Shown here: one piece after another, positions 9,001 through 40,888 of the stretch
Layout of the letters: every line of letters starts with the position of its first letter
How positions within the stretch are numbered: position 1 is the stretch's first letter
NCBI GenBank assembly: GCA_016176555.1
Contig: JACOWY010000002.1
Coordinates: 1 to 49,755, forward strand
Direction of reading: 5' to 3'
Length of the DNA: 49,755 nucleotides
Source: Candidatus Chisholmbacteria bacterium
GTDB taxonomy: Bacteria; Patescibacteriota; Microgenomatia; UBA1400; JACOWY01
Notes under the pieces: generated by a model
The model's database searches: none
What the model was told of the DNA's origin: nothing
What the model saw: the letters and a program-made list of their open reading frames with translations, nothing else
Made by a program: the position numbers and the translations under genes

Positions 9001-9022
9001 TAGGCAGTAGCTTTCTTAATAT

Positions 9023-9150
9023 CTACGCCTCTCCGGCAGCGGCCGGATCAGCCGATGTTACTCACTTCGTTCGTAATGGACTACGGTCGCCTAAGGCGAC
9101 CCGTCGTTATGTCTGAGCCTCGCTGACGCTCGGCCGACGTAACTCGCTAA
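9023..9150 (+). repeat. composite of GC-hairpin repeat modules
   Basis: Module A is at 9023-9054 (CTACGCCTCTCCGGCAGCGGCCGGATCAGCCG). Module B is at 9055-9079 (ATGTTACTCACTTCGTTCGTAATGG). Module C is at 9081-9110 (CTACGGTCGCCTAAGGCGACCCGTCGTTAT). The modules recur at 19097-19145, 40297-40327, 40784-40839, 5266-5323 and 35222-35280. Confidence 0.75.
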
Positions 9151-9630: not shown

Positions 9631-9689
9631 GTGGGTCGATTGTATCTATGGAGTCGTTTTATGTGCAAGAGACAGGATTTTTCTGTTAA

Positions 9690-9831
9690 CTCTACGCCTC
9701 TCCCGCCGATTCGGCGGGCTCGGCCGAGGTAGCGCTTTATTAGAATTTTTACGGATCTCTTGCTATCTCTACGTGTTGCTTCGCAACGCCGAGGTAGCGC
9801 TTTATTAGAATTTTTACGGATCTCTTGCTAT
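9690..9831 (+). repeat. tandem duplication: two units, each CTCTACG + hairpin + identical 43-nt core
   Basis: The core CCGAGGTAGCGCTTTATTAGAATTTTTACGGATCTCTTGCTAT occurs at 9724-9766 and 9789-9831 with 43/43 identity. The hairpins differ: CCCGCCGATTCGGCGGG versus GTTGCTTCGCAAC. Confidence 0.9.
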
Positions 9832-10171: not shown

Positions 10172-10254
10172 AAGAAATCATAAATCATATATCTTATATA
10201 TATGATATATGATATTTGATATTTGATATTTATCTTGATTGGGGGTGAGAGCGA

Positions 10255-10486: not shown

Positions 10487-10517
10487 ATAAAAACCCGATC
10501 GCGAGGTCGGGTTTTTG
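10487..10517. terminator. bidirectional rho-independent terminator
   Basis: AAAAACCCGA-TCGCGAGG-TCGGGTTTTT, with an A-run on one side and a T-run on the other, located between convergent genes. Confidence 0.6.
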
Positions 10518-10527
10518 GTGTCATGTT

Positions 10528-10582
10528 ACATCACTGGCAGTAAAAGACCGGGTCTTTTGGCAAGACCCGGTCTTGAAGCCTA
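10528..10582 (-). terminator. 55-nt repeated double-palindrome hairpin, copy 1
   Basis: AAGACCGGGTCTT-TTGGC-AAGACCCGGTCTT forms a 13-bp stem. On the minus strand it is followed by TTTTAC. It lies about 95 nt 3' of the 10677 gene and is near-identical to 15105-15159. Confidence 0.5.
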
Positions 10583-10676
10583 ACGGAGATACTTTGTTTG
10601 CACACCTAAGCGCTTAAAAATCGAAGGCCTGTATTCCAGAAACAATCGCGACCCCAAACCCTGCTCGGATACTTAT

Positions 10677-15104: not shown

Positions 15105-15159
15105 ACATCATTGGCTGTAAAAGACCGGGTCTTCTGGCAAGACCCGGTCTTGAAGCCTA
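15105..15159 (-). terminator. 55-nt repeated double-palindrome hairpin, copy 2
   Basis: It differs from 10528-10582 at 3-4 positions. It lies 3' of the 15283-15528 ORF and 21 nt upstream of the rdgB start. Confidence 0.5.
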
Positions 15160-15282
15160 TCATAGTCATCTTGCCTTCACATAGTGACTTCAAAACGAAA
15201 GTGAATTGCGAAATTCGGGTGATTTTCCGGCAAAGAGAAGGACATGAAGTTCATGTCTTTCTCTCTACTTTCTTTGATTGGG

Positions 15283-29063: not shown

Positions 29064-29123
29064 ACATTCTGAAGGGGAAAACCCTAGGTTTTCCCCTTCA
29101 GGTCTCCCCTTTCCTTAAATGGT

Positions 29124-29155
29124 ATGCTCCTGCGCGCGAAGCTTGCTCGGAGCAT
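29124..29155 (-). terminator. hairpin with conserved loop (third copy)
   Basis: The 7-bp stem ATGCTCC/GGAGCAT encloses TGCGCGCGAAGCTTGCTC, between the RR stop and the pilB start. The loop is nearly identical to those at 32988-33005 and 31983-32021. Confidence 0.5.
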
Positions 29156-29171
29156 GATTTAAAAAAGAAAT

Positions 29172-29783
29172 TTACTGTGGATTACTTTTGACTGGTTGGG
29201 CACCTAAATGCTGTTTGATTTTTTCAACCACTTGCGTGGGGGTGAGGTTAGCTTTGACTAAAAATTCTTTGGCTCCGAGTTCCATAGCTTCTTTTTGCTT
29301 GGCTATTTCAGAAAGATTGGAAAGCATGAGGATGGGGACGTCTTTGAAGCTGGGGTCATTTCGCAAGCGGCGAAGCACATCGATGCCGTCCATTTTGGGC
29401 ATCATGATATCGAGAATGATGACGTCGGGTTTTTCGGCTTTGGCCAAGGTCAAGCCGGCTTCACCGTCGGTGGCGGTGTAGACTTGAAAGCCTTCGTTAG
29501 TGAATTTAGTTTGGTACATATTGATGAGCAAAGGATCGTCTTCGACAAGCAGCAACACTTTGGTCGAGGTGCGGCCACCTGCCGCGATTGAGGGATTGGC
29601 ATGTGTGGCGGGAGGCAGGGGGGGTGAGGTGGGGACTGCCGGGGTAGGAGGTGGTGGAGGTGGAGGGGGAGGTGGAGGGGGGGGCGAAGTCGGCGTAACT
29701 TGGGGGGCAGATGGGCTCACAGGCTTTGGAGAGACTGGGGAAGAGTTTGGTGGCGGTGGATTAAGGGGGTTATGGCTAGTCAT
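29172..29783 (-). CDS. single-domain response regulator with about 75-aa Pro-rich N-terminal extension
   Basis: Receiver motifs LLVEDDPLL, ILDIMMPKMDG and a conserved Lys region. There is no output domain. By my count there is a run of 13 consecutive Pro codons. Confidence 0.85.
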   Translation of the reverse strand: MTSHNPLNPPPPNSSPVSPKPVSPSAPQVTPTSPPPPPPPPPPPPPTPAVPTSPPLPPATHANPSIAAGGRTSTKVLLLVEDDPLLINMYQTKFTNEGFQVYTATDGEAGLTLAKAEKPDVIILDIMMPKMDGIDVLRRLRNDPSFKDVPILMLSNLSEIAKQKEAMELGAKEFLVKANLTPTQVVEKIKQHLGAQPVKSNPQ

Positions 29784-31922: not shown

Positions 31923-32032
31923 CATGCGTACTTTTTCTTTGGAAAAGAAAAAGCTACGGCAAAAAGAAAGCTGGAGAAACTCTGCGCGCCCGCCCGCCGG
32001 CGAGGCAGGCAAAGCTTGCTCGAGTTTCTGAT
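31923..32032 (-). repeat. about 90-110-nt two-hairpin module, copy 1 (with 21-nt insertion)
   Basis: CATGCGTACTTTTTCTTTGGAAAAGAAAAAGCTACGGCAAAAAGAAAGCTG.AGAAACTCTGCGCGC[ins]AAAGCTTGCTCGAGTTTCTGAT. Apart from the insertion and 1 mismatch it matches 32928-33016. Confidence 0.9.
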
Positions 32033-32044
32033 TTGTATCTGTTT

Positions 32045-32719
32045 TTACTTTTTCCTCCCCATGTACCACTCGTCCATCATTTTGGCGACTATGTCTTTGC
32101 TGCCCAAACCAAGAGCCAGGCCAAAGCCAAGGCTTAAGGCGCCGACGACGCCAAAGAAGATGGCTTGAATAAACTCGCTGGCAATGTTTAGCTCGGCGAT
32201 GGCCGCCAGGGTGACAAACACCATGATGGTGTAGCTAGTGACTTTACCCAGCAATCGGGCCACTTTGGGATTGACGTTACTGACTGCTCCTTTGACCATG
32301 CCTTCAAGCACTCCGGCGATGATAATGCCTAAGGCAATAATGACCACCGCCGAAACAACGTTGGGGATGTAACTTAAGATATTTTTGAGAACTTCTGAGA
32401 CAGCGGTGAGGCCAAGTTGGTTTAACGTGGCGATGACAAAGATGAGCAAAATGATCCAACGAACTATTTGGCCAATTATTTTTTCTATGGTGTGGGGTAT
32501 TTCTGCCTGCTTGAGAAATTTTTCGACGCCGGTGTTTTGGAGTAATTTTTCTAATCTGATTGTTTGCAAAAACGACACGGTCAGCTTGGCTGCCCAGTTG
32601 GATAAAATGAGACCAACGAGAAAAATTACTAAGGCCCACAATAACGAGGGGACAAAATTAGCTAGCTCCTGTAACACGGAACTTCCGGCGCTAAATACAA
32701 TACTTTGTGTGCTTTCCAT
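32045..32719 (-). CDS. membrane protein with conserved TM-helix repeats (CmpX/mechanosensitive-channel-like)
   Basis: Repeated P(S/N)LLWALVIFLVGLIL-type helices. Strong SD GAAAGGGGGTGA upstream of the ATG. Confidence 0.55.
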   Translation of the reverse strand: MESTQSIVFSAGSSVLQELANFVPSLLWALVIFLVGLILSNWAAKLTVSFLQTIRLEKLLQNTGVEKFLKQAEIPHTIEKIIGQIVRWIILLIFVIATLNQLGLTAVSEVLKNILSYIPNVVSAVVIIALGIIIAGVLEGMVKGAVSNVNPKVARLLGKVTSYTIMVFVTLAAIAELNIASEFIQAIFFGVVGALSLGFGLALGLGSKDIVAKMMDEWYMGRKK

Positions 32720-32744
32720 TTACTTTTCACCCCCTTTCTAGCCA

Positions 32745-32926
32745 ATCTTACACTGTTTACCACAGTACCAGAAAGCCCCGCGTCAGACGCGGGGATGAAT
32801 GGGGGTCTTTTTGGGGCTTTCGGTACGTGGTTTCAGTCTCATATATGAATGAAGCCCCCGCCGATTTGGCGGGGGAGACTTCACTCTTAGACTGAAAAGC
32901 CCCAAGGGGTTAGCTTGGGGCTGATC
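32745..32926 (-). promoter_or_regulatory. highly structured leader / candidate cis-regulatory RNA upstream of the 32719 gene
   Basis: Four nested GC hairpins, plus mutually exclusive pairings (terminator-like 32776-32794 versus a long stem 32765-32779/32813-32826). Confidence 0.35.
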
Positions 32927-32927
32927 A

Positions 32928-33016
32928 CATGCGTACTTTTTCTTTGGAAAAGAAAAAGCTACGGCAAAAAGAAAGCTGTAGAAACTCTGCGCGCAAAGCT
33001 TGCTCGAGTTTCTGAT
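32928..33016 (-). repeat. about 90-nt two-hairpin module, copy 2
   Basis: Immediately 3' of the RNase P RNA on the minus strand. Hairpins are GTACTTTTTCTT-TGGA-AAGAAAAAGCTAC and AGAAACTC-loop-GAGTTTCT. Confidence 0.9.
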
Positions 33017-33027
33017 CTAAAGTGCGG

Positions 33028-33364
33028 GTGGTCTTTTGAGCGTGTAAGCCAGATTCTGTTTCCGGCAGTTGCCGGATTGCAGTCATTTATCTGGTGCCCT
33101 CATGCCTTAGTGTGTAGAGGGAAGCTGCTCACACTGGTCGGAGGTTGCAGCAGGGAGGATTGCCTCCCGCCAAAATAGGCGGGACCTCGATCTGATTACT
33201 CAGACGTCATCGGCGTTTCACTCCCGCCGAATAGGCGGGACTCGTCTCTGTTGCTCTGACTGGCGGTCACCCGCTCCGGCTTGCGCCGGACACCTTGCTT
33301 CCGGCTGTCTGGACTTTCCTCCCCGCCTCTGCGGCGGGGCGACTGCACCGGTTCAAAAGACCTA
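33028..33364 (-). ncRNA. rnpB: RNase P RNA, bacterial type A
   Basis: On the minus strand, GGAGGAAAGTCCAGAC (P4 5' strand) pairs with ACAGAATCTGGCTTAC (P4 3' strand), compensatory relative to E. coli CCGGG/CCCGG. GCAACAGAGA and AGATAAATGACTG blocks are present. P1 is GGTCTTTTGA/TCAAAAGACC. Confidence 0.9.
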
Positions 33365-34438: not shown

Positions 34439-35470
34439 TCAATGTAGTTTAGGGTACCAGTTTTTTATTTCGGCCACAACTTTGTTTGGGTAGCCAACTT
34501 CACTGACGTCAGACCAGTGAATTTTTTGGGTTTTTCTAAACCAGGTGAGTTGGCGGCGAGCATATTGTTTTTCAGAGGTGACCCAGAGTTTAAGCGCTGC
34601 CTTTTGACTCAATTTTCCTTCTAGATATGCTCTCCAAAATTGGTAGCCGGTAGCAGAAAAGGCTGGGAGTTGTTGCCAATTGCTATATTGCCTGATTAGG
34701 GTCCGCACTTCTTGGTCCATGTTCTTTCCTGCTCTTTTTCTAACCCTTTCTTCTATCAAAGCATCGAGGGTTTTTTGGGGGGCAACTAAGCCTATCCACA
34801 AGGGGTTATATGTAGGGCTCGTAACCTTAGGTGGTGGGTGGTGGCGGAGATAGAGAGCAACTTCTATGCTTCTCACGAGACGGCGAGGGTTGTTTTTATC
34901 TGAAGAGTTTAATTGATTAAAGTGCTTTCGATTCACCTTTTTTAATTCCTGCTGCAACTCAGTGACACTTTTTGATCCTAGAGTTTGGCGGAGGGTTTTA
35001 TTTTGGGGGATAAAAATAGTCTGCGGACTTTTGAGAAGACTATTAATGTATAGGCCGGTGCCGCCAACAATGATGGACAGCTTATTTCTTCTTTGGATGT
35101 CATTTATGACCGCTGATGCAATGCGGACAAAATGGCTAACGCTAAACTCCTGATTGGGCTTGGCAAGATCGTAGCCCCAGATTTTCGTGCCGTTACCATA
35201 AAACGGAATTTTTTTATTTTTATTTTGAGCTGGCGAAAAAGAGCGGCCGATCCCGCCGCTTGAGGCGGGGGAGGCGTAGCTATATTTGATATTTGATATT
35301 TGATATTTGATATTCCGAGGGATGTCTTTGCCCGTGCCGACATTCATACCTTTATACACCTGCCGTGAGTCAGCAGAGATAATTTCACCGGAAAACTTAT
35401 GAGCGAGTTTGAGGGCGAGGGAGGTTTTGCCGGTGGCGGTGGGGCCGCAAATGATGAGAACTTGACGCAT
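34439..35470 (-). CDS. miaA: tRNA dimethylallyltransferase
   Basis: P-loop GPTATGKTSLALKLA, plus SADSRQVYKGMNVGTGK and IIVGGTGLY. It carries an about 35-aa repeat-derived insert. Confidence 0.9.
   Translation of the reverse strand: MRQVLIICGPTATGKTSLALKLAHKFSGEIISADSRQVYKGMNVGTGKDIPRNIKYQISNIKYSYASPASSGGIGRSFSPAQNKNKKIPFYGNGTKIWGYDLAKPNQEFSVSHFVRIASAVINDIQRRNKLSIIVGGTGLYINSLLKSPQTIFIPQNKTLRQTLGSKSVTELQQELKKVNRKHFNQLNSSDKNNPRRLVRSIEVALYLRHHPPPKVTSPTYNPLWIGLVAPQKTLDALIEERVRKRAGKNMDQEVRTLIRQYSNWQQLPAFSATGYQFWRAYLEGKLSQKAALKLWVTSEKQYARRQLTWFRKTQKIHWSDVSEVGYPNKVVAEIKNWYPKLH
35222..35314 (-). repeat. hairpin-repeat family copy plus (ATATTTG)x4.7 microsatellite inside miaA
   Basis: The minus-strand sequence CTACGCCTCCCCCGCCTCAAGCGGCGGGATCGGCCGCTCTTTTTCGCCAGCTCAAAAT (35280 down to 35222) matches the intergenic copies at 40784-40839 and 10124-10171. 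The 7-mer tract is at 35282-35314. Confidence 0.85.
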
Positions 35471-40669: not shown

Positions 40670-40783
40670 TTCTAAACAACTAATCTTGACTACACAGGTT
40701 TTACCATGTAAGTGCCTATAGTTCAAGTTATTTTAAAAGTGAGATCTAGAAATTGGTTGTATGGAGAATGGAAATTAGTAATA

Positions 40784-40839
40784 GCTACGCCTCCCCGGCA
40801 GCTGCCGGATCAGCCGCTCTTTTTCGCGAGGCTCAAAAT
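40784..40839 (+). repeat. hairpin-repeat family copy
   Basis: GCTACGCCTCCCCGGCAGCTGCCGGATCAGCCGCTCTTTTTCGCGAGGCTCAAAAT, flanked by GGAAATT-type periodic tracts. Confidence 0.8.
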
Positions 40840-40888
40840 GGAAATTGGAGATTGGAAAGTAGCTAGATTCTATACAGCCAATTTCTAA

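Follow-up and report, generated by a model that had tools for sequence, protein, structure and literature searches.

The hairpins analysed here are taken to belong to a lineage-specific family of short (approximately 90–110 nt), non-coding, modular palindromic intergenic repeats in the genome of an uncultured groundwater member of the Patescibacteria (CPR), an assignment given a probability of roughly 0.62. The family is best read as new and as REP/BIME- or BOX-like in its behaviour. Its elements are present in multiple copies, have been inserted into intercistronic or trailer spacers that are very short, point in the direction of the genes on either side and are other than canonical terminators; they are probably selfish or weakly regulatory DNA and not the natural ends of transcription units. 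As dispersed, modular, multi-copy repeats that are absent from the corresponding sites of relatives, they constitute first of all a repeat or mobile-DNA phenomenon. The stretch surveyed, referred to below as the window, is 49,755 nt of DNA from Candidatus Chisholmbacteria and makes up a complete contig.

Along the gene strand, which is the minus strand of the window, an element runs from a left flank UUUA(A/G)AUCA through hairpin A and a spacer to a second hairpin, B or B', that ends 2–11 nt ahead of the next start codon. Hairpin A (32–34 nt, or 55 nt in its long form) has variable arms of 7–8 bp around the conserved core C-GAGCAAGCUU(U/C)GCGCGCA-G with an optional GC-rich apical stem; hairpins B and B' measure 30 nt and 33 nt. 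An earlier note on this DNA had described three look-alike hairpins with a common 18-nt core, TGCGCGC(R)AAGCTTGCTC, and both coordinates and sequences agreed with that description: the core was found as TGCGCGCGAAGCTTGCTC at 29131–29148, as TGCGCGCAAAGCTTGCTC at 32988–33005, and in split form (TGCGCGC, 21 nt, AAAGCTTGCTC) at 31983–32021. With up to three mismatches allowed, the core pattern has three matches in the window against 0.13 expected, a number reached in none of 100 shuffles. A fuzzy search (five substitutions at most, stem of 5 bp or more) of the window and approximately 60 kb of relatives returned no extra copies. A vector, phage or plasmid source for the restriction-site-rich core was considered and rejected, no meaningful matches being found.

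The arms around the core are AGAAACTC/GAGTTTCT at 31975–32029 and 32980–33013, and ATGCTCC/GGAGCAT at 29124–29155. The stems differ and are yet compensated, as had been proposed: five of the six loop-proximal pairs are changed on both sides and 100% of the cells pair, compared with 22–56% for these six pairs in slid registers, the arm covariation being fully documented for two arm types only. No G-U pair occurs among the approximately 42 stem pairs of hairpins A, B and B', all of them Watson-Crick, a composition expected for palindromes at the DNA level. The proposed conservation of the loop was borne out, but the conserved part is larger and takes in the closing C-G pair and the left flank TTTA(A/G)ATCA (gene strand), while the CTCGAG described at the stem junction holds in the module type and not elsewhere. 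A conserved unpaired core between freely varying, always paired arms is a genuine, non-random pattern.

Two of the three hairpins lie, as previously claimed, within a duplicated module of about 90 nt, here termed type 1, in which 31923–31989 and 32928–32994 are 99% identical and the next 24 nt are 100% identical. The two copies, 1005 nt apart, are separated by housekeeping genes, and in each the order on the gene strand is hairpin A, spacer, hairpin B. Copy 2 (32928–33016, minus strand; 99–100% identical to copy 1) separates the 3' end of RNase P RNA from the terminator belonging to that RNA. It bears the short form of hairpin A (32980–33013, minus strand; arms at 32980–32987 and 33006–33013, 18-nt core at 32988–33005), with an RNA fold of -12.2 kcal/mol, followed by the spacer (32963–32979, minus strand; GGCAAAAAGAAAGCTGT on the plus strand, ACAGCUUUCUUUUUGCC on the gene strand) and by hairpin B (32933–32962, minus strand), whose AU-rich stem has 12 pairs and a single bulged base, position 32959, that is C, or T in 15–34% of depth. 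This second hairpin, GTACTTTTTCTT-TGGA-AAGAAAAAGCTAC, had also been noted before and is real, allowing for the one bulged base (fold z = -5.2). The spacer and hairpin B form the most repeated part of the module, and other copies diverge past 32974.

Copy 1 (31923–32032, minus strand) occupies the space between the stop codon of an MS-channel-like gene (32045) and the start of uppP (31917). Its hairpin A (31975–32029, minus strand) is the long form, which has the same arms and core and an extra 21-nt GC-rich apical stem-loop at 31990–32010 (-30.4 kcal/mol, z = -3.2). This insertion is present in the loop as reported but is not unique to copy 1: a near-identical segment, CCGCCTTGCCGGCGAGGCAGGCAAAGCGTG, follows TGCGCGC in another metagenome copy, and hairpin A therefore exists in short and long forms. 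The remaining module, type 2 (29064–29163, minus strand), lies between the stop codon of the response regulator (RR) gene (29172) and the start of pilB (29063). On the gene strand it comprises hairpin A (29124–29155, minus strand; arms ATGCTCC/GGAGCAT around TGCGCGCGAAGCTTGCTC; also termed hp3), a purine-rich spacer and hairpin B' (29069–29101, minus strand), a perfect 15-bp palindrome ending 5 nt before the pilB ATG (-24.7 kcal/mol, z = -5.4). Further type-2 copies in metagenomes end 2–6 nt ahead of a start codon.

Several additional roles for the module sequence were considered. A 28/35-aa ORF on the plus strand and an open frame on the gene strand of type 1 were rejected as coding sequences, as the start is absent in other copies and type 2 has stops, and a chimeric six-frame peptide query for such spurious ORFs gave no matches across other module copies. 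A pseudoknot between loop and spacer (AAGCU with AGCUU) was likewise rejected because it is possible in type 1 only. No sigma-70-like promoter site was found inside the module.

The corresponding sites in relatives argue for insertion. The order RNase P RNA, terminator, MS-channel gene, uppP, HK, RR and pilB is common to the syntenic relatives, in which UppP is 63–78% identical and RR is 66–88% identical over its aligned part. None of the three sites carries an element in the relatives examined, and spacers of 95–127 nt in the window correspond to spacers of 4–16 nt in relatives. The copy 2 site is empty in L181 and L183; at the copy 1 site the spacer is 4–15 nt (L181–L184, L268 and L269), and at the type-2 site it is 15–16 nt (L265 and L268), some relatives carrying unrelated inserts at the RR-PilB junction instead. 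Copy 1 and the type-2 copy interrupt junctions that are tight stop-start junctions in relatives. RNase P RNA (33029–33359, minus strand; bacterial type A, Rfam RF00010, 111.7 bits) is the upstream neighbour of copy 2 and lies outside the element, and its native intrinsic terminator (32894–32922, minus strand; AGCCCCAAG...CUUGGGGCU then UUUU; -15.3 kcal/mol), which is kept in relatives, is in the window now downstream of the module.

In the window, hairpin A lies 13–17 nt past the end of the upstream gene. The earlier note had placed the hairpins immediately 3' of minus-strand units, and this adjacency is true, but the elements lie equally immediately 5' of the next gene in two cases and of the RNase P terminator in one. 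Its broader claim, that they mark the 3' ends of transcription units, was not sustained, because all three positions have 4–16 nt or unrelated inserts in syntenic relatives and copy 2 stands upstream of the RNase P terminator. As to traces of the insertion event, a direct repeat, GATCAG, is present on both sides of copy 2 only, the empty site in L181 reading GATGAG; copy 1 and the type-2 copy have no matching target-site duplication. The element ends, ATCAGAAACTC... and ...AAAAGTACGCATG on the gene strand, are not mutual reverse complements, so that terminal inverted repeats are lacking. Pfam scans of 40 of the window ORFs did not reveal a mobilising enzyme, whether a transposase or an HUH protein.

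Seven groundwater metagenome runs from one study, six of them with coverage enough for usable ratios, provided depth data. In these six runs hairpin B plus spacer reached approximately 8–25 times the depth of its flanks, a copy number inferred from metagenome depth to which close strains could contribute. Each hairpin-A type stood at approximately 3–5 times flank depth (approximately 10 times for type-1 A in run X3), and the type-2 region 29075–29161 at approximately 3 times, with other type-2 copies existing. Many different loose-end flanks were observed, and Logan contigs end inside the module, i.e. assemblies break there. In other copies the spacer is followed by CTAATGGTAC-ACGCGC/AGGCGC-TGCG(C/A)(A/G)C(A/G)AAG(C/T)TT, hairpin B being combined with different hairpin-A arms and slightly different cores, and one contig has an hp3-like hairpin A joined directly to hairpin B. 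The units are combinatorial: hairpin B occurs with several hairpin A variants, and A-then-B adjacency is also seen. At least eight further metagenome copies (five type-1 and three type-2) have B or B' ending 2–11 nt from a start codon (CAT on the plus strand), and window and metagenome copies alike are co-oriented with the flanking genes. Within each type, the copies are near-identical recent duplicates.

Representative genomes in GTDB contain 55 exact matches to the core, about the chance number, with no convincing hairpin around it; the longest flanking complements were 5 bp, in two unrelated proteobacterial genomes. Among the at least 120 matches listed in a scan of JGI metagenome contigs there was likewise no convincing hairpin, the longest complement among them being six pairs, counting G-T wobbles, in one metagenome contig. 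IMG/VR yielded three core matches, none in a hairpin, and a 24-mer of hairpin B plus spacer had no match in GTDB or IMG/VR. Close relatives sought in GTDB by means of UppP and RecA were not found, the best RecA (including that of a Daviesbacteria MAG) being 67–71% identical. In the only RNA run, RNase P RNA from other organisms was present but the modules were not represented.

The modules probably spread as non-autonomous mobile DNA or through recombination. By analogy with REP/RAYT, IS200/IS605 ends and attC, the form most likely to be recognised would be a folded single strand. Enzymes that recognise single-strand hairpins read loops, bulges and flanks, and their stem contacts are non-specific (PMC8266576). 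A putative enzyme of this type would read the unpaired core and the flank in a sequence-specific manner and require only that the arms pair, which would account for arms that are exchanged yet perfectly Watson-Crick around a loop that stays conserved. Loop-specific recognition of the core, whether as RNA or as folded single-stranded DNA, is plausible. It is a more speculative proposal, and on balance an improbable one, that the 20-nt core and the left flank form the recognition site of a CPR enzyme that places or processes the modules precisely at operon stop-start junctions; candidates would be an RNA-binding nuclease, or a transposase or recombinase acting on single-strand DNA. Once inserted, the modules would be co-transcribed with the operon, and as a secondary effect their hairpins may influence how stable the mRNA 3' end is, how the transcript is processed or how translation of the downstream gene is coupled. 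Other small hairpin-repeat families were observed in the window and at different loci in relatives, a member of one lying in-frame inside miaA, and the lineage is thus permissive for such elements.

Hairpin A might instead be a functional RNA element at which mRNA 3' ends are defined or protected through loop-specific binding or processing, the partner being an RNA-binding protein, an RNase or an antisense RNA, with selection acting at each site and compensatory evolution maintaining the stems. This is possible but doubtful. It would account for a conserved unpaired core and flank with compensated arms, for the constant transcribed-strand orientation 13–17 nt past the upstream gene end in the window and for the position of other copies, likewise between a gene end and a start codon; the window also encodes RNase Y. 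Strict stop-start position together with co-orientation would also fit a selected RNA function. It sits poorly, however, with the absence of the element at the three orthologous sites in every relative examined, with the near-identity of copies within a type as recent duplicates, with the lack of G-U among the stem pairs and with the location of copy 2 in the RNase P RNA trailer, upstream of its terminator, where an mRNA function is unneeded. Nor was any Rfam family matched even at E = 10: at the gathering threshold only RNase P RNA and a tRNA were detected in the window, and at E ≤ 10 the type-1 modules had no matches and the B' region only chance-level ones (two miRNA families and Clostridiales-2). 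Effects on mRNA after insertion are known for REP, BOX and Correia elements, and a role in RNA is for that reason compatible with the hairpins being repeats. That they are ordinary Rho-independent terminators sharing sequence through duplication is very unlikely. They do lie past gene ends, and type-1 hairpin A is followed on the gene strand by CUUUCUUUUU 5 nt on; its stem, however, has G-C in only 3 of 8 pairs and carries an 18-nt loop, the U-run is 5 nt off in type 1 and absent in type 2, and a consensus scan that called nearby hairpins made no call on these. Genuine terminators in this genome have GC-rich stems followed directly by U-runs, and the relatives show the sites to be tight operon junctions. 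The earlier view of the hairpins as something other than generic intrinsic terminators is upheld by these weak AU-rich stems, by the missing U-run directly after the stem and by the scan.

The core contains several 6-bp palindromes (GCGCGC and AAGCTT) and one copy adjoins the HK/RR pair, which would suit a double-stranded DNA operator for a transcription factor, e.g. that of the adjacent two-component system. Such an operator is hardly credible here: the 21 nt of the long form split the core, which would destroy a site in duplex DNA whereas a hairpin is merely extended, the core as a whole lacks dyad symmetry, copies lie inside operons without promoter-like sites, and the RR adjoining the type-2 module matches in Pfam a receiver domain only, with no DNA-binding output domain. 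The least probable of the explanations weighed is that of guide-RNA-like units, whether an IS110 bridge RNA, CRISPR-like repeats or a TIGR stem-loop array. In its favour, the stem-loop arrays of TIGR systems, which occur in CPR bacteria, combine palindromic stems of variable sequence with short motifs conserved in the loops (PMC12045711). The present elements, however, form no tandem arrays and are dispersed among housekeeping genes, their conserved part is the loop rather than a pair of variable spacers of 8–12 nt, and the 40 window ORFs scanned with Pfam include no gene for Cas, IS110 or a Nop-domain (Tas) protein. Integron attC sites were also considered and rejected: the R''/R' core sites (RYYYAAC ... 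GTTRRRY) are absent at the ends of A and B, the flanking genes are syntenic housekeeping genes, and no integrase was found by Pfam among the same 40 ORFs.

The genomes of CPR/Patescibacteria are small and streamlined and are usually assumed to be poor in repeated or mobile DNA. A stretch of approximately 50 kb nevertheless shows several active hairpin-repeat families. Such elements can alter operon expression and serve as markers for strain-level evolution, and since Logan contigs end at the module, short-read assemblies are fragmented there and MAG completeness is affected. If recognition does take place at the core, an uncultured phylum would be expected to contain a new enzyme that mobilises or processes such modules; if the modules were indeed placed by it, they would represent a new class of mobile element that targets operon junctions, recognised by its loop and unconstrained in its stem.

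As repeats, the modules share features with several known families. Correia (NEMIS) elements of Neisseria and ERIC/IRU elements of enterobacteria are of similar size (approximately 100–150 nt), are co-transcribed, form processable hairpins that alter mRNA stability and vary in presence or absence at orthologous sites between strains. They are, however, MITE-like with long terminal inverted repeats, and Correia elements have a TA target duplication, whereas the modules lack terminal inverted repeats and show no duplication that is consistent between sites. MIRUs are likewise short repeats in the intercistronic spacers of operons, gene-oriented and abutting the upstream stop and downstream start, and the intercistronic, gene-co-oriented placement that marks them was found here; but they are tandem units of 40–100 bp with small ORFs overlapping the flanking stop and start codons, whereas the present units are hairpins, not in tandem in the window, with an open frame ending in an ATGA overlap in copy 1 only and stops in every frame of the type-2 copy. 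BOX elements (boxA-boxB-boxC) of Streptococcus pneumoniae and RUP are modular intergenic repeats of tens to hundreds of nt with interchangeable sub-units forming stable hairpins, lie near gene ends or starts and are transcribed. They show no sequence similarity to the modules and belong to a different phylum, and BOX has no unit with a conserved loop and variable stem; the present elements, moreover, lie strictly just upstream of start codons.

REP/BIME elements and their RAYT (TnpAREP) transposases are hosted by Enterobacteria, Pseudomonas and Stenotrophomonas. The present family differs from them in its CPR host, with no RAYT gene among the 40 window ORFs by Pfam, in its AU-rich or mixed stems where those of REP are GC-rich, and in having two unrelated hairpin types in fixed order. 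The inverted REP/iREP doublets have no counterpart, no inverted copy of A or B being found in the window, where the units follow in direct order A-spacer-B. The conserved GTAG head is also absent: hairpin A has no GTAG, and hairpin B opens with GTAG on the gene strand, but its GTA is paired and its G is the variable bulged base. The likeness lies in palindromic units of 20–50 nt in many intergenic copies, often within operons near stop codons, and in composite, co-transcribed clusters of units; palindromes of this size in many dispersed intergenic copies were found here as well (3–25 times flank depth, distinct flanks). It extends to the manner of recognition, given that the enzyme reading REP as a folded single strand relies on unpaired features and a motif in the flank, the stem needing only to pair (PMC8266576).

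Three matches to the hairpin A core, TGCGCGC(R)AAGCTTGCTC, were found in the window with up to three mismatches allowed, against 0.13 expected, and none of 100 shuffles reached three. The core is intact at 29131-29148 and 32988-33005 and interrupted by 21 nt at 31983-32021. Two copies (the long form at 31975-32029 and the short form at 32980-33013) have the arms AGAAACTC/GAGTTTCT, and the third (hp3, 29124-29155) has ATGCTCC/GGAGCAT. The six loop-proximal stem pairs were paired in every case, with five of the six changed on both sides, while slid registers of the arms gave only 22-56% pairing. The common core and compensated stems described in an earlier note on this DNA were thus both recovered. 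Conservation is not restricted to the loop; the copies also share a closing C-G pair and, on the left, the flank TTTA(A/G)ATCA (gene strand). The 21-nt GC-rich insertion reported from the loop of module copy 1 is present there but is not unique to it. Another copy, from the metagenome, has an almost identical segment after TGCGCGC, indicating that hairpin A comes in two forms, one short and one long, the latter with a rod-like fold (-30.4 kcal/mol).

The type-1 module (hairpin A, spacer and hairpin B) is duplicated at 31923-32032 (copy 1) and 32928-33016 (copy 2), with 99% identity over 67 nt and then 100% over the next 24 nt, bearing out the duplicated module of about 90 nt noted previously; its second hairpin, B, is AU-rich with one bulged base. 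The type-2 module (29064-29163) lies between the response-regulator (RR) gene and pilB, where hp3 and a purine-rich spacer are followed by B', a perfect 15-bp palindrome with no relation to B, whose end is 5 nt short of the next ATG. The two module types differ at 1 of 20 core positions, 1-3 of 9 left-flank positions and at least 5 of 6 positions in each arm, and are wholly unrelated to the right of hairpin A. Such uneven divergence cannot be reconciled with uniform drift. In A, B and B' together, all of about 42 stem pairs are Watson-Crick and none is G-U, which argues less for an old RNA helix than for DNA-level maintenance of palindromes or very recent copying.

The window is one entire contig from groundwater metagenomes. 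Comparison of RecA and UppP placed the host in the Patescibacteria (CPR) and found no close GTDB representative. All genes adjoining the elements lie on the minus strand (Pfam). In order of transcription, miaB, miaA and an AI-2E family transporter gene are followed by the RNase P RNA (33359-33029; Rfam), module copy 2, a GC-rich hairpin with a 3' UUUU, a structured stretch of about 120 nt, an MS-channel-like gene, module copy 1, uppP, a histidine kinase gene, the receiver-only RR gene, hp3 with B', and pilB, pilC and pilM. The 5' part of the RR gene (29560-29783) encodes a Gly/Pro-rich low-complexity N-terminal extension; the protein has 203 aa here, compared with 120-194 aa in relatives (one outlier of 268 aa), whose alignments cover only 52-89% of it. 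Plus-strand GC skew is strongly positive in all 5-kb bins (0.06-0.22), despite a gene complement lying about four fifths on the minus strand, so the coding strand is C-rich and A-rich.

Relatives' contigs, found via UppP (63-78% identity) and the response regulator (66-88% over the aligned part), have the same gene order as the window. The MS-channel stop and uppP start are 4-15 nt apart in six of them (L181-L184, L268 and L269) versus 127 nt in the window; a more distant relative, L267, has a 96-nt spacer with no similarity to the module. In L181 and L183 a conserved terminator hairpin, AGCCCC...GGGGCUUUUCAG, begins 12-14 nt past the RNase P RNA 3' end, compared with about 95 nt, module included, in the window. 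Similarly, 15-16 nt separate the RR stop and pilB start in L265 and L268 versus 108 nt in the window. This last junction is a recurrent insertion site, with unrelated, hairpin-bearing inserts in L266 (57 nt, 767-825) and L267 (a different hairpin, 10511-10562). No module copies were found in about 60 kb of relatives' DNA. The empty orthologous sites indicate that the three elements are lineage-specific, inserted into transcribed spacers that are otherwise very short, and are not conserved ends of transcription units; the earlier note had placed them at the 3' ends of such units.

Contigs from seven runs of the source study were compared with the elements; six had usable depth ratios, X7 being too thin. 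Depth was about 8-25x the unique flanks for hairpin B plus spacer (32931-32974; six runs), about 3-5x for the window-type hairpin A (about 10x in run X3) and about 3x for the hp3/B' module (29075-29161). Logan contigs stop within the module, a 1014-nt MS-channel contig spans one copy to the other, and the module is joined to many different flanks. After the spacer, other copies continue, for example, as CTAATGGTAC-ACGCGC-TGCGCACAAAGTTT or CTAATAGTAC-AGGCGC-TGCGAGCAAAGCTT, and one contig only (agreement 1) as CTTATTGTAC-AGGCGC-TGCGCACGAAGTTT; their 5' arms differ and the core varies at a few positions. Their AATGGTA motif also precedes hp3 in the window, and in one contig hairpin B directly abuts an hp3-like hairpin A, which ends in ...GAGCATGATTTTAA. 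In at least eight further copies a start codon lies 2-11 nt past the end of B or B' in the same orientation (e.g., ...GGACAT AAAACTAG|GCGTAC and ...GGCCAT AAATCATTCTGA|AGGGG), and on the A side several copies adjoin TTA, which the gene strand reads as a TAA stop. The elements thus form a repeat family that is both modular and dispersed.

Hairpin A is not an intrinsic terminator, in agreement with the earlier note. Three of its eight pairs are G-C, the loop is 18 nt, type 1 has its U-run 5 nt off and type 2 has none, and a terminator scan made no call; real terminators of this genome have GC stems with a U-run directly after. The modules have no Rfam assignment, searches ruled out vector, plasmid or phage sequence, and attC sites, a duplex operator and TIGR (features from PMC12045711) or CRISPR-like arrays were all rejected. 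A Pfam scan of 40 window ORFs turned up no transposase.

The elements are thus inserted, multi-copy and modular, with one orientation, no terminator features and perfectly compensated arms. They are probably non-autonomous mobile DNA whose folded single strand would serve as the substrate. RAYT/TnpAREP, IS200/IS605 TnpA, attC-acting integron integrases and relaxases are specific for loops, bulges and flanking motifs, and their stem contacts are non-specific (PMC8266576), a mode that would fit arms free to vary as long as they pair, beside a core conserved together with its flank. Recognition of the core by a putative junction-targeting enzyme is rather unlikely. The earlier note took the conserved core and covarying stems for a loop-specific recognition site for protein or RNA. 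The observation was confirmed and the interpretation is supported in part: an RNA site is a live rival, partly compatible with a mobile repeat, yet rather improbable. Template-switch 'correction' of quasi-palindromes could be a further mutational route to double, compensated changes. Once inserted, mobile modules would have to be co-transcribed with host operons. By analogy with REP, BOX and Correia elements, they may then act on mRNA ends, by stabilisation or processing, or uncouple downstream translation.

Other repeats were also observed. A second insertion relative to L181 and L183, about 122 nt long (32761-32882) and flanked by the RNase P terminator on one side and the MS-channel gene 5' UTR on the other, carries two GC-rich hairpins, CCCCCGCCAAATCGGCGGGGG and CCCCGCGTCTGACGCGGGG; depth about 2x its flanks (runs X4 and X2) and variant contigs suggest that it is probably another repeat family. 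A further small family (9017-9080, 9686-9766 and 40779-40842) consists of CTACGCCTCTCC, a GC hairpin with copy-specific arms, and GGATC(A/G)GCCGAGGTA(A/G)CGCTTTATTAGA. Its presence at a different locus in L184 (1240-1320, between uppP and the HK gene) indicates mobility across the clade. A 44-nt tandem duplication occurs at 9723-9766 and 9788-9831, and a 77-nt repeat (83% identity) in two intergenic regions (10528-10604 and 15105-15181) surrounds a strong terminator-like hairpin, AAAAGACCGGGTCTT...AAGACCCGGTCTT. Compared with L268, miaA (34439-35470, minus strand) has a 20-aa in-frame insertion, SYASPASSGGIGRSFSPAQN, at 35222-35314, whose DNA resembles the intergenic repeat 40781-40827 and a TATTTGA microsatellite (10197-10230). 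By its sequence this is a repeat placed in-frame within a gene, reminiscent of Rickettsia palindromic elements.

In behaviour the elements are closest to REP/BIME, BOX, MIRU and Correia/ERIC. They lack the GTAG head and REP/iREP doublets that define REP, the terminal inverted repeats of MITEs, and the tandem units with overlapping ORFs of MIRUs, and are therefore filed outside any named family, as a new one within the broad category of 'bacterial interspersed palindromic intergenic repeats'. What was found is genuine, a new repeat family and not a new class of 3'-end signal, and its unusual traits among such repeats are the read-the-loop/free-stem pattern, the strict placement at stop-start junctions and the CPR host.
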